DNA of 64,000 nt, taken from assembly GCF_001677475.2 (NCBI RefSeq), contig NZ_CP015229.1. The stretch is one strand, 5' to 3'. The stretch is from Escherichia coli. Its GTDB lineage: Bacteria; Pseudomonadota; Gammaproteobacteria; Enterobacterales; Enterobacteriaceae. Below the pieces are notes generated by a model. The model saw only the letters and a list, made by a program, of their open reading frames with translations. It did not search any database and was not told the DNA's origin. How positions within the stretch are numbered: the stretch's first letter is position 1; every line of letters starts with the position of its first letter. The position numbers and the translations under genes were made by a program. Below are positions 47,898 to 52,160 of the stretch, piece by piece.

Positions 47898-50141
47898 TCA
47901 GGCACTTTCGCGAATGGGTTCGATTTCATTCAACGTATCAATTAACGGCTGCGGCTTACCAATAAGATAACCCTGCATATAATCGATCCCCAAAGAGAGC
48001 ACCGCCTCGCGGATCTCTTCGTTTTCAACGTACTCTGCCACTACCAGCATTTTCTTCATTCGCGCCAGGTGGCAAATCGATGCCACTATCTGATAATCCA
48101 GACTATTTGACACAATATTGCGGATAAAACTGCCGTCAATTTTAAGCAGATCGGCATTCACATTTTTAAGCCGCGCATAGCTGGCGTAGCCGGTGCCGAA
48201 ATCATCAATCGCAATCTGGCAGCCTAATTCCTGAAGATGCTGCAAGGTGATTTGCGCCTGCTTAACATTGGTCAGAGCATTACTTTCGGTGACTTCAAAA
48301 ATAAGTTGCCACGCTTCAATCTGATATTTAGCCAGCAACTGACTGACTTCAACAGGAAAACGAGCCTGACATACCGAGGTTGGAGACAGATTAATAGCAA
48401 AACGGTGAGCGGGCATCTTCGCTCTGTTTTCAGCCATAAATTGCAGCGTATGCTCAATGACCCACATGTCGATACTCGACGATAAACCAAATTCGTGCGC
48501 GACCGGCAAGAAGCTATCGGGGCTGATCAATTCATCATTCTCACCTTTCATGCGCAGAAGAATTTCATGGTAAACATCACCACGCATACCGGTAATCGGC
48601 TGGGCCATCAGGAAAAAATGGTTGTGTTCCAGCGCCTGCTGTAGTCGATTCATCATCGCGACTTTATCTTTCAATTCGCGTTGCAAATACATTGCCCCGC
48701 GACGCTGCATATTTTCCGGGGCGTTGGTCACGATGGAAAGTTCGGCGACCGTATTTAGCTCTCCCAGCAGCAGGTAGATATGATTCACTGGCGAGCGCAC
48801 ATAGCAGTAACTGACGCCAATCTGCGGTTGCATCGGCATGCCATCCCAAAAGAAACGAAATTGCTTGAGATGGCTATCCAGTGCGGTAATGCGCTCCTGG
48901 TGCGATTCTGTATTCAGTCGCAGCGCGAGATCGTTACCCGAAAGCTGATAAACATCTTCACCCGGTTCCAGCAAGGGTGACAGCCAGTGAGAAAGTTTTT
49001 GCTTGTATTGAATCCGCAGCATGATGCCATAGTTCTTAACCAGCATTTCCATGCCAGGGATGCGTAAATAACAAAGCGCAGACCAGGGGGCATCACGCAA
49101 CGCGCGATTCAGGGCGCGAACATTTGGCAGATGAACCACCGGGTCCACATACGCAAGCCGCTGAATGCGTCTGACTACCGTTCTCTGACGGGTTGCCAGT
49201 ACAGCCATATAATTGACAATAAAAGAGAATACCAGATAACTGGAGGAGGTTATGGTCAGCTGCGTGGTATAGCCAGGATAAATGGGAATGTAATTTTGAT
49301 AGCTGTGGATGCTGATCATCAACACGACCGCCCAGAGCAGCGAAATCAGCTTATAACCATAGCGCATCGCTCCCCACATCATCAGGGGCAGCAATAATGA
49401 CAAGGTATAGTTGGTGCTAAAAATTGTGCTTTTTTCATTTAACGGCATGCATAACAGCAACAGTAAAGCACCTAATGCCAGTAGCCAGAGTGCGAACTCT
49501 TTTTTGGTGACTTTGACATCAACCTGCTGTTTTAATTGCGAATAATAGCTACGTAAATAAAATGGATTTCGCACTACCCGAATGATGAAGTAGCACAGCG
49601 GGACACCGATCAGATTACCCACCAGTAAGGCCTGATAATTGATTAAAGTCCCGAGGTTAAAAGGCATGACACCGACCAGATTTTCTCTACTCGCCAGTAA
49701 TCCTACAAATGCGGCAAACTGGAAAAGTATCAGAAACAGCGTTGCAGGAAACACAATCTGCCAGAATATACGCTGGGAAATTAAACGGGTATCACCATGT
49801 GAAACGTTGTTACGCCGGGGAGTAAAGACCCTGTAACCGCCCCAACAGAGAATGATAATGATAATAAAATTAGCCGTTAACGAGAGCGTTTCGTAAAAAC
49901 CCAGCTCTGAATATTTGCGGACAAAAATCCCTAAGGCGATCCCTGGCAATGCCGCCCAGCTGAAAAACATCATCATGCTGATCATCAGTGCCAGAGGCAG
50001 ATAAAAGAGAAAAACCTCACCGGAAGAAATATGCGCGAAAGTATTGATGTGGCCGAAAATGGGCAAGATTAAAGAAGGCAGGAACAGCGGAAGCCCCCAC
50101 CATTTATCACGTATTTTTATATAGGTTGCATTCAGTTTCAT
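47898..50141 (-). CDS. pdeF: c-di-GMP phosphodiesterase PdeF (MASE1 - degenerate GGDEF - EAL)
   Basis: 747-aa ORF; hydrophobic N-terminal half and C-terminal EAL domain (QPITGMRGDVYHEILLRM...). Confidence 0.92.
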   Translation of the reverse strand: MKLNATYIKIRDKWWGLPLFLPSLILPIFGHINTFAHISSGEVFLFYLPLALMISMMMFFSWAALPGIALGIFVRKYSELGFYETLSLTANFIIIIILCWGGYRVFTPRRNNVSHGDTRLISQRIFWQIVFPATLFLILFQFAAFVGLLASRENLVGVMPFNLGTLINYQALLVGNLIGVPLCYFIIRVVRNPFYLRSYYSQLKQQVDVKVTKKEFALWLLALGALLLLLCMPLNEKSTIFSTNYTLSLLLPLMMWGAMRYGYKLISLLWAVVLMISIHSYQNYIPIYPGYTTQLTITSSSYLVFSFIVNYMAVLATRQRTVVRRIQRLAYVDPVVHLPNVRALNRALRDAPWSALCYLRIPGMEMLVKNYGIMLRIQYKQKLSHWLSPLLEPGEDVYQLSGNDLALRLNTESHQERITALDSHLKQFRFFWDGMPMQPQIGVSYCYVRSPVNHIYLLLGELNTVAELSIVTNAPENMQRRGAMYLQRELKDKVAMMNRLQQALEHNHFFLMAQPITGMRGDVYHEILLRMKGENDELISPDSFLPVAHEFGLSSSIDMWVIEHTLQFMAENRAKMPAHRFAINLSPTSVCQARFPVEVSQLLAKYQIEAWQLIFEVTESNALTNVKQAQITLQHLQELGCQIAIDDFGTGYASYARLKNVNADLLKIDGSFIRNIVSNSLDYQIVASICHLARMKKMLVVAEYVENEEIREAVLSLGIDYMQGYLIGKPQPLIDTLNEIEPIRESA

Positions 50142-50994: not shown

Positions 50995-51513
50995 GTGATG
51001 AAATTTAAAAAATGTCTTCTGCCTGTGGCAATGTTAGCGTCATTCACTCTGGCAGGATGCCAGTCAAATGCTGATGATCATGCCGCCGATGTTTATCAAA
51101 CCGATCAACTGAATACCAAACAAGAAACTAAAACCGTTAATATTATTTCCATTCTTCCCGCAAAAGTTGCCGTAGACAACTCCCAAAATAAACGAAACGC
51201 ACAAGCCTTCGGCGCGCTTATTGGTGCAGTCGCTGGCGGTGTAATCGGCCACAACGTGGGGTCTGGCAGCAATTCCGGAACGACGGCAGGTGCAGTTGGC
51301 GGCGGAGCTGTAGGCGCGGCAGCAGGTTCTATGGTGAATGATAAAACCTTAGTGGAAGGTGTTTCTCTAACGTATAAGGAAGGCACCAAAGTGTATACCT
51401 CCACCCAGGTGGGTAAAGAGTGCCAGTTTACGACAGGTTTAGCCGTTGTTATTACCACGACGTATAACGAAACGCGTATTCAGCCAAATACGAAATGTCC
51501 TGAAAAGAGCTAA
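50995..51513 (+). CDS. yfgH: outer-membrane lipoprotein YfgH (glycine-zipper)
   Basis: 172-aa ORF; lipobox LAGC; Gly-rich zipper GAVAGGVIGHNVGSGSNSGTTAGAVGGGAVGAAAGS. Confidence 0.88.
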   Translation: MMKFKKCLLPVAMLASFTLAGCQSNADDHAADVYQTDQLNTKQETKTVNIISILPAKVAVDNSQNKRNAQAFGALIGAVAGGVIGHNVGSGSNSGTTAGAVGGGAVGAAAGSMVNDKTLVEGVSLTYKEGTKVYTSTQVGKECQFTTGLAVVITTTYNETRIQPNTKCPEKS

Positions 51514-51528
51514 TGATCAGGAGGAGTC

Positions 51529-52068
51529 ATGAAGAAAGTTTTTCTTTGCGCCATCTTAGCCTCCTTAAGCTATCCGGCTATCGCCTCATCATTGCAGGAT
51601 CAACTCTCGGCTGTCGCAGAAGCGGAACAGCAAGGTAAAAATGAAGAGCAAAGGCAGCATGACGAATGGGTCGCGGAGCGCAACAGGGAAATCCAGCAAG
51701 AGAAGCAACGTCGCGCAAACGCCCAGGCCGCGGCTAATAAAAGAGCGGCAACGGCAGCGGCGAATAAGAAAGCTCGTCAGGATAAACTGGACGCCGAAGC
51801 CTCTGCGGACAAAAAACGCGATCAAAGTTATGAAGATGAGCTACGCAGCTTAGAGATTCAGAAACAAAAACTGGCGCTGGCAAAAGAAGAAGCCCGCGTT
51901 AAGCGAGAAAACGAATTTATCGATCAGGAACTGAAGCACAAAGCTGCGCAAACCGATGTGGTGCAATCTGAAGCTGACGCAAACAGGAATATGACTGAGG
52001 GCGGTCGAGATCTGATGAAAAGCGTGGGCAAAGCAGAAGAGAACAAATCGGACAGCTGGTTTAACTAA
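51529..52068 (+). CDS. yfgI: signal-peptide protein YfgI, highly charged predicted coiled coil
   Basis: 179-aa ORF; signal peptide then K/E/R/Q/A-rich low-complexity sequence. Confidence 0.88.
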   Translation: MKKVFLCAILASLSYPAIASSLQDQLSAVAEAEQQGKNEEQRQHDEWVAERNREIQQEKQRRANAQAAANKRAATAAANKKARQDKLDAEASADKKRDQSYEDELRSLEIQKQKLALAKEEARVKRENEFIDQELKHKAAQTDVVQSEADANRNMTEGGRDLMKSVGKAEENKSDSWFN

Positions 52069-52105
52069 GCGATGTCAGTAATTTCAAGCCTATGATTCGT
52101 GAGTA

Positions 52106-52140
52106 TAAAAAACCCTCTGTAGTAACAGAGGGTTTTGTTC
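52106..52140. terminator. bidirectional intrinsic terminator (yfgI / guaA)
   Basis: aaaaaaccctctgtagtaacagagggttttgtt: A-tract, stem, T-tract between convergent genes. Confidence 0.8.
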
Positions 52141-52160
52141 ATTCATAGTGCAGGGTCAAA

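Follow-up and report, generated by a model that had tools for sequence, protein, structure and literature searches.

What does a highly charged, apparently exported protein do in the cell envelope of Escherichia coli, when nearly every genome that encodes it places one particular outer-membrane lipoprotein gene directly upstream? The question is raised by yfgI, located at positions 51529-52068 of a 64,000-nt stretch of E. coli contig NZ_CP015229.1 (assembly GCF_001677475.2); this whole stretch is referred to here as the window. A first-pass annotation, made from the letters alone, had described the product as YfgI, a secreted, extremely charged, low-complexity protein whose heptad-like patterns predict a long periplasmic coiled coil, and had linked the K-12 gene to tolerance of nalidixic acid. 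The open reading frame (ORF) is genuine: it starts with ATG, encodes 179 amino acids (aa) and contains, as residues 33-130, exactly the peptide quoted in that annotation. The name was likewise correct, as seen from the match to DUF5384 (PF17358; E 7.5e-62, 208.2 bits where the cut-off is 25, all 145 model positions covered) and from RefSeq, which labels the gene yfgI, ‘DUF5384 family protein’. DUF5384 was the sole match at E ≤ 1 in a Pfam scan; the protein also matches PHROG 1094, and no NCBIfam or PADLOC model matches it.

Of 5426 complete E. coli genomes, 5421 match the region, with identities of 95-99% or higher. yfgI is a core E. coli gene, already known and annotated, non-essential and of unknown function, and this basic picture is left unchanged here. 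What is added is its near-obligate pairing with yfgH, the modular architecture of its product, and an argument that the ‘DNA damage’ label attached to it is indirect. The explanation that we favour, with moderate confidence, is that YfgI partners YfgH in the periplasm to stabilise the outer membrane, and that the nalidixic acid phenotype of the mutant is an envelope effect.

The yfgH-yfgI gene pair

yfgH and yfgI, in that order, appear to form a conserved envelope module of two genes, laid out in the window as follows.

50995..51513, + strand: yfgH, upstream operon partner, SlyB-like outer-membrane lipoprotein gene (from the ORF, Pfam, the SlyB match and the family alignment)
51519..51526, + strand: Shine-Dalgarno sequence of yfgI, AGGAGGAG, read from the sequence inside the yfgH-yfgI gap
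51529..52068, + strand: yfgI coding sequence, 179 codons plus stop, ATG start; DUF5384 / PHROG 1094

The SlyB-like glycine-zipper gene lies immediately upstream of yfgI on the same strand, at a distance of 15 nt (51514-51528, counted from the yfgH stop codon), and the Shine-Dalgarno sequence within this gap is strong. A scan of one genome per species, with a 13-sequence alignment as query, returned 73 loci; these were pooled with metagenomic loci and the window, and ORFs were called and then searched with YfgH. Over this set, in which a few near-duplicate loci leave some redundancy, a yfgH homologue stood directly upstream and on the same strand in 76/79 occurrences of a yfgI homologue, drawn from alpha-, beta- and gamma-proteobacteria. 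The intergenic gap across the 76 pairs ranged from -4 to 54 nt, 15 nt being the commonest value. The scan loci came from Enterobacterales, Xenorhabdus, Pantoea, Rahnella, many Pseudomonas, Photobacterium, Shewanella, and Haemophilus and Actinobacillus (Pasteurellaceae), and further from Tolumonas, Zobellella, Nitrosomonas, Parvibaculum, Acetobacter and several metagenome-assembled genomes. Three independently chosen distant YfgI homologues (33-48% identity) showed the same arrangement with yfgH upstream. The three exceptions were a 409-aa fusion, a fragment lacking a signal peptide, and a truncated symbiont copy among transposase-like ORFs. Pairing of yfgH with yfgI is near-obligate across Proteobacteria, phage-plasmids and plasmids, and is the main result added by this analysis.

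The partner is the better conserved of the two proteins. In YfgH a lipobox (LAGC, with Q as the next residue) is combined with a glycine-zipper hairpin and a C-terminal domain. It matched the Pfam families Rick_17kDa_Anti and Gly-zipper, with a TraT match below threshold; among known structures, SlyB (7OJF) aligned with it over the full length at E 3.9e-10, and TraT (9E2V/9FS5) was weakly similar. In the family alignment the YfgH subfamily is marked, close to the C-terminus, by an NETRIQPN motif together with two Cys that do not vary. In almost all YfgH partners of the pairing set the residue after the lipobox is Q or A, which under the +2 rule points to the outer membrane; the few exceptions were truncated or ambiguous ORF calls. 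YfgH is probably oligomeric. A genetic interaction map reported an aggravating interaction of YfgH with lptD, vancomycin sensitivity, and a tie to outer-membrane integrity (PMC3219608), and a 2025 preprint described sensitivity to detergent/EDTA, reported that BamA, LptD and porins co-purify with YfgH, and proposed SlyB-like rings (10.64898/2025.12.22.696046). YfgI would most likely work with YfgH, for which a stabilising effect on outer-membrane proteins and lipid during envelope stress has been reported.

The YfgH-like lipoprotein goes under the name ‘DNA methyltransferase’ in RefSeq phage records and in PHROG 1277 (for example P7 upf50.5, L082 4476-4997; also L084 2355-2870). The protein is a SlyB homologue with a lipobox, and the label therefore appears to be a propagated misannotation.

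Some individual loci depart from the simple pair. The DUF5384 homologue of Candidatus Enterovibrio escacola has no yfgH upstream and itself begins with a lipobox and an N-terminus resembling that of YfgH (FTGCQITG). This copy (L081 5001-5513) was considered as a natural fusion of a YfgH signal to YfgI, such as an internal deletion might produce, and was set aside as C-terminally truncated with transposase-like flanks; the locus is probably decaying. The 409-aa metagenomic protein (P0237; L002 1508-2737), also lacking yfgH upstream, carries the DUF5384 C-terminal region at residues 272-407, behind a 270-residue N-terminal region of Asp/Asn/Ala/Lys-rich, helical-looking repeats with neither a signal peptide nor a Pfam match.

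Other loci carry more than the pair. In 20 Pseudomonas-type loci (L046-L079) a third gene is present, lying after yfgI on the same strand in 19/20 and upstream in one; in the example read (L076 3261-3617) it encodes a small predicted lipoprotein of ~105-118 aa (LLLAAC...) without a Pfam match. The gene may be a lineage-specific third component. A gene for a large membrane GGDEF/EAL (cyclic di-GMP) protein neighbours yfgHI in 16 loci from Escherichia, Citrobacter, Pantoea, Tolumonas, Zobellella and some Pseudomonas. In the window this neighbour is pdeF (47898-50141), whose product has MASE1-EAL domains in E. coli, compared with PAS-GGDEF-EAL in Pseudomonas (L065 5703-8585); orthology is uncertain, and the adjacency may be due to chance. 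The whole pair is present as two tandem copies in Pseudomonas alkylphenolica (L050 2772-3883 and 4420-5531), and Escherichia sp. E1V33 has a second, diverged copy at another locus (L021, 61% identity).

Export, helix and domains of YfgI

An exhaustive HMMER search of 1.84 billion representatives (E ≤ 0.001) found 252 clusters of YfgI homologues, and the family is therefore small. Alignments and region-by-region analysis divided the protein into four parts, three of them in the mature form, listed here together with an indel-prone tract inside the spacer.

51529..51585, + strand: Sec-type signal peptide, residues 1-19 (n/h/c-region and -3/-1 rules)
51586..51627, + strand: conserved N-terminal motif of mature YfgI, residues 20-33, SSLQDQLSAVAEAE, family pattern SLxxQIxAV (two alignments)
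51628..51807, + strand: variable, charged, Ala/Gln-rich helical spacer, residues 34-93 (family length, composition and AlphaFold2)
51721..51762, + strand: indel-prone tract in the spacer, residues 65-78, AQAAANKRAATAAA (E. coli allele comparison)
51808..52065, + strand: conserved C-terminal domain, residues 94-179 (family length, identity and invariant positions)

Mean pairwise identity was 0.28 for the signal peptide, 0.39 for the N-terminal motif, 0.24 for the spacer and 0.53 for the C-terminal domain. The spacer, 37-72 aa long across the family, has a pooled composition of A 30%, Q 15%, R 14%, E 14% and K 8%, with core hydrophobic residues at only ~7-8%. It is the truly low-complexity portion of the protein, so that the description ‘low-complexity’ stands for residues ~34-93 and fails for residues 94-179, a conserved domain that the first-pass annotation overlooked, as it did the near-obligate pairing with yfgH. 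No formal tandem repeat was reported in yfgI by Tandem Repeats Finder. The C-terminal domain follows the pattern DKxRDQxYEDxLRxLEI ... NDxIDxELK ... TDVIQSxADAxRNxSxG ... GKA ... WFx and is 86-87 aa long in 70/76 homologues; its positions L135, A140, A149 and G158 never vary in the family, many others hardly do, and the usual C-terminus is a W-F aromatic pair plus one residue. In place of that W-F-x end, a distant DUF5384 homologue of 223 aa (P0223) has a predicted transmembrane helix, WIWKLVASILGIILIGIISFFGFGYY, which hints that the C-terminal end may sit near a membrane.

Secretion, as first proposed, is supported by prediction. The N-terminus shows MKK, a hydrophobic core and a predicted signal peptidase I site between AIA and SS (A19 and S20), called by rule rather than by a dedicated predictor; the pattern is common to homologues, family members having AxA-type cleavage sites, and no further hydrophobic segment follows. 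YfgI would thus be made with a Sec signal peptide, cut near A19/S20, and released into the periplasm as a soluble protein. It has no lipobox ([LVI][ASTVI][GAS]C): Cys7, in VFLC, is off consensus and not conserved outside Escherichia. The statement that srgIL/yfgHI encode “two small lipoproteins” (PMC12086679) therefore holds for YfgH only.

The unusual composition was borne out. K, E, R, Q, A and D make up 62.6% of the full protein and 66.7% of the mature form, compared with 34.1 ± 6.4% for the 60 ORFs of at least 150 aa in the window, among which YfgI ranks first in this fraction and last in hydrophobic fraction; 39.6% of mature residues are charged. Most of its length is only weakly amphipathic (hydrophobic moment 0.07-0.35). 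Its extreme charge and hydrophilicity, the low complexity of the spacer and the weak amphipathicity would all suit a largely disordered, hydrophilic periplasmic stress protectant resembling late embryogenesis abundant (LEA) proteins and acting without a specific partner. We nonetheless regard such a role as highly improbable: the C-terminal domain is of near-fixed length with invariant residues, the N-terminal motif is conserved, linkage to yfgH is strict, and mature YfgI contains 2.5% Gly, below the >6% Gly by which hydrophilins are defined.

The predicted shape is that of one long helix. An AlphaFold2 monomer model built with 53 diverse homologues gave a single uninterrupted helix over residues 21-177 (mean predicted local distance difference test, pLDDT, 88; predicted template modelling score, pTM, 0.50), with the spacer helical at pLDDT 96-98. 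Mature YfgI, of ~160 residues and ~18 kDa, would measure ~23 nm as a straight helix at 1.5 Å/residue. Foldseek comparison of the monomer model with the PDB gave 0 matches, as expected for a single helix, and a family-profile sequence search of the PDB gave chance-level matches only. The mature protein may be pictured as all-helical, with the conserved N-terminal motif, a solvent-exposed Ala/Gln/Arg/Glu spacer and the conserved C-terminal domain in succession.

It does not follow the pattern of a canonical coiled coil. Hydrophobic occupancy of a/d positions in the best register was 0.25-0.62 along YfgI, the highest value coming from the segment ~84-125, and hydrophobic a/d residues were not significantly above what composition predicts: four heptad statistics, calculated for the mature protein, the spacer and the C-terminal domain, were equalled by a fraction of 0.07-0.89 of 2000 composition-matched shuffles. 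The positive control, Lpp, scored 0.99-1.0 on the heptad measure, and 0/2000 shuffles did as well. The heptad-like patterns first described are thus not upheld, and of the ‘long periplasmic coiled coil’ it is the long periplasmic helix that is supported, whereas the coiled coil is not. Nor does YfgI resemble an ER/K single alpha-helix: the 60-residue spacer has four opposite-charge i/i+4 pairs (0.07/residue) and is Ala/Gln-rich rather than an E/K alternation.

Comparison of E. coli alleles bears on the same point. Relative to the 179-aa form, common alleles encoding 177, 175, 173, 172 and 170 aa lack 2, 4, 6, 7 and 9 residues in frame, and every one of these deletions falls in the Ala-rich tract AQAAANKRAATAAANKK (residues 65-78). 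That non-heptad indels are tolerated speaks for a spacer that serves as a solvent-exposed connector and not as part of a register-dependent bundle. The view that YfgI forms homo-oligomers in the periplasm as a canonical coiled coil, in the manner of Lpp, and functions through its own bundle, can draw on the confident, uninterrupted 157-residue helix, on the a/d occupancy of 0.62 around residues 84-125, and on the conserved small residues A140, S147, A149, G158 and G167, which could aid tight helix-helix packing. We consider it unlikely, given heptad statistics that shuffled sequences match as Lpp's do not, the scarcity of core hydrophobics in the spacer, and natural indels of 2, 4, 6 and 9 residues that would break a continuous register. 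The C-terminal domain on its own may still form homo-oligomers.

One allele (P0056) is frameshifted. It carries a 7-bp deletion, AGGATCA, at the equivalent of window positions 51596-51602, just past the signal peptide, and this cuts into the conserved SLQDQL motif; gene callers report a 169-aa product with another start and no signal peptide (L166 1445-1600). The allele is widespread in E. coli (989 collection blocks; one source gives it the name O145:H28), and yfgI is probably a pseudogene in that lineage.

Copies on mobile elements and the yfgI-guaA junction

Mobile elements carry the same two genes together. A tblastn search with YfgI found 200 plasmid records and 13 phage records; the search with YfgH found 201 plasmid records and the identical 13 phage records, with a like breakdown by host and mobility. 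The matching sets indicate that yfgH and yfgI co-occur one-to-one from both sides. Linkage from the YfgH side was judged by these plasmid and phage searches rather than by a scan of viral contigs, which was swamped by near-identical E. coli prophage predictions with host yfgH inside their boundaries. Most plasmid matches were to non-mobilisable records of 64-150 kb, in which YfgI is ~48-49% and YfgH 67% identical to the window proteins; in P1/P7-type phages the values are 47.5% and 67%. In phage P7 the pair (upf50.5/upf50.0) is flanked by the c4-icd-ant immunity region on one side and by the late tail operon on the other. E. coli and Salmonella also have small mobilisable plasmids of the ColE1 type (3.9-7.5 kb) whose main cargo is yfgHI (L083 3593-6967; L085 400-2379); its neighbour is in one case a CptA-like lipopolysaccharide (LPS) phosphoethanolamine transferase that is not an MCR family member, and in another an alpha-type carbonic anhydrase.

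This distribution might mean that yfgHI is mainly mobile-element cargo for surface exclusion or protection (TraT-like surface exclusion, serum resistance or phage superinfection exclusion, for example), the chromosomal copy having been domesticated. Carriage on P7, SJ46, RCS47, ~190 P1-like phage-plasmids and the small mobilisable ColE1-type plasmids fits such an origin, as do the position beside the immunity I region in P7, the weak similarity of YfgH to TraT, a metagenomic copy amid ParA, PemK and Aca2 genes, and regulation of the Salmonella Typhi orthologue by SdiA. That orthologue, SrgL (T0350), is encoded in srgIL, which responds to SdiA and acyl-homoserine lactone in Typhi and not in E. 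coli (PMC11619404). Set against this, neither YfgH nor YfgI matches PADLOC defence models, the pair is chromosomal core in E. coli and chromosomal in many Pseudomonas and other genera, and loss of YfgH affects outer-membrane integrity with no phage or plasmid challenge. We judge a primary role as cargo to be improbable; the idea is in any case compatible with partnership between YfgI and YfgH, as it concerns selective benefit rather than mechanism.

The two ‘phage’ matches with 100% identity, from TL-2011b, were rejected as phage copies: they represent host flank, the prophage being integrated between yfgI and guaA. In the window, the gene order is pdeF (yfgF), yfgG, yfgH and yfgI, then guaA and guaB on the opposite strand, with one structured element between the convergent genes.

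52109..52136, strand ‘.’: hairpin between convergent yfgI and guaA, with A-run and T-run flanks (folding)

The hairpin has 12 bp (dG -20.6 kcal/mol, z -5.86; 0/200 shuffles as stable) and, placed as it is between convergent genes, is probably a bidirectional intrinsic terminator. It was found by direct folding and missed by a simple terminator scan, presumably because the A-run and T-run pair together in the fold, leaving no free T tail. The intergenic region (52069-52160), where phage insertion has been described (PMC10050402), is an integration hotspot (loci L084, L001 7385-13262 and L086-L165), empty in the window. The TL-2011b record (L084) and dozens of IMG/VR ‘viral’ contigs terminate in host yfgG/yfgH/yfgI, and strain VCSW5 carries at this site an island with a ‘VPA1262 family protein’ gene.

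Nalidixic acid, the outer membrane and related systems

Hydrophobic quinolones are kept out mainly by the LPS/lipid barrier, whereas hydrophilic drugs enter through porins. Nalidixic acid is hydrophobic, its entry being set by the lipid barrier of the outer membrane; ampicillin and kasugamycin enter mainly via porins.

The published literature on yfgI is thin, but the link to nalidixic acid first mentioned could be traced: relative to wild type, the deletion mutant survived at 7% on nalidixic acid, compared with 98% for kasugamycin and 74% for ampicillin, in a study whose phyletic profiling had predicted “DNA damage response” for yfgI (PMC3536626). A prediction made beforehand, followed by a severe loss of survival on nalidixic acid with near-normal survival on the other two drugs, is what would be expected if YfgI truly acted in the DNA damage response or in ‘nalidixic acid resistance’, as its names in some databases state. 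That YfgI has such a role seems very improbable all the same. The conserved Sec signal peptide places it outside the cytoplasm, and an exported protein would therefore have no direct part in DNA repair; its invariable operon partner is an outer-membrane lipoprotein; and no nucleic-acid or repair domain was matched in Pfam, NCBIfam or PADLOC. Moreover, SdiA-dependent expression of srgIL in Salmonella left sensitivity to nalidixic acid and to UV unchanged (PMC11619404).

Predicted export, an operon partner reported to stabilise the outer membrane, and the hydrophobicity of nalidixic acid together lead to the reading favoured here, of YfgI as a YfgH partner and of the phenotype as an envelope effect. 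YfgI would sit on the periplasmic side of YfgH assemblies and serve there as an adaptor or strut, and hypersensitivity of the mutant would arise from a weakened outer-membrane barrier to a hydrophobic drug, not from a defect in DNA repair. A more specific version, which we put forward tentatively and hold to be possible rather than probable, makes YfgI an obligate periplasmic subunit of a two-component SlyB-type system: the C-terminal domain or the N-terminal motif would dock on the YfgH tail (the two Cys and NETRIQPN), and the helical spacer, with a total length of up to ~23 nm, would project from YfgH rings toward the peptidoglycan or inner membrane. On this view yfgHI would be a portable module for bracing the outer membrane, carried from host to host by phage-plasmids and small plasmids.

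Several points limit, or weigh against, the reading of YfgI as a partner of YfgH. A fused-chain AlphaFold2 model, YfgH-(GGGGS)6-YfgI at 1:1 with 38 paired sequences, reached a pTM of 0.38, with the C-terminal domain of YfgI modelled less confidently than in the monomer. This lends no support to a confident 1:1 complex and leaves room for binding to an oligomeric YfgH ring. yfgI is dispensable, the widespread E. coli allele described above being frameshifted just after the signal peptide, and S. Typhimurium is reported to lack the yfgHI pair (PMC11619404). In the preprint on YfgH, YfgH alone complements the phenotypes and yfgI is never mentioned (10.64898/2025.12.22.696046). The nalidixic acid phenotype itself comes from a single screen, and we found no outer-membrane permeability assay of a yfgI mutant in the literature.

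YfgH has lately been proposed as a SlyB-like stabiliser in work that ignores the next gene in nearly every genome examined here. If YfgI is indeed its partner, pull-downs of YfgH, models of its oligomer and complementation experiments should include YfgI, and the database label “nalidixic acid resistance / DNA damage response” would probably be secondary to envelope permeability. P1-type phage-plasmids and small ColE1-type plasmids would then be spreading a module that hardens the envelope. A place for YfgI as a structural subunit of YfgH outer-membrane assemblies would raise the significance of yfgI.

Among known systems, the members of DUF5384 / PHROG 1094, including P7 Upf50.0 and S. Typhi SrgL, are the true homologues of YfgI, molecular function being unknown for all of them. 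Upf50.0 shares 47.5% identity with YfgI across 178 residues; it is annotated with a signal peptide, and its gene comes after one for a YfgH-like lipoprotein. SlyB (PDB 7OJF, 7OJG) is not homologous to YfgI and marks instead a functional neighbourhood reached through YfgH: both SlyB and YfgH are linked to outer-membrane stabilisation under stress, although the two Cys and NETRIQPN signature of YfgH is not obvious in aligned SlyB, and slyB of E. coli is not known to have a YfgI-like partner gene. Both Lpp and TolA domain II are long Ala-/charge-rich periplasmic alpha-helices of a length comparable to envelope spacings. YfgI resembles them only as a long periplasmic helix, its spacer recalling TolA domain II in composition; it shares no sequence homology with either, has no lipid or transmembrane anchor of its own, and lacks the heptads of Lpp. 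TraT (PDB 9E2V, 9FS5), for which no YfgI-like partner is known, is weakly similar to YfgH, below the Pfam threshold, and not to YfgI; like traT, yfgHI is carried on plasmids and phage-plasmids.

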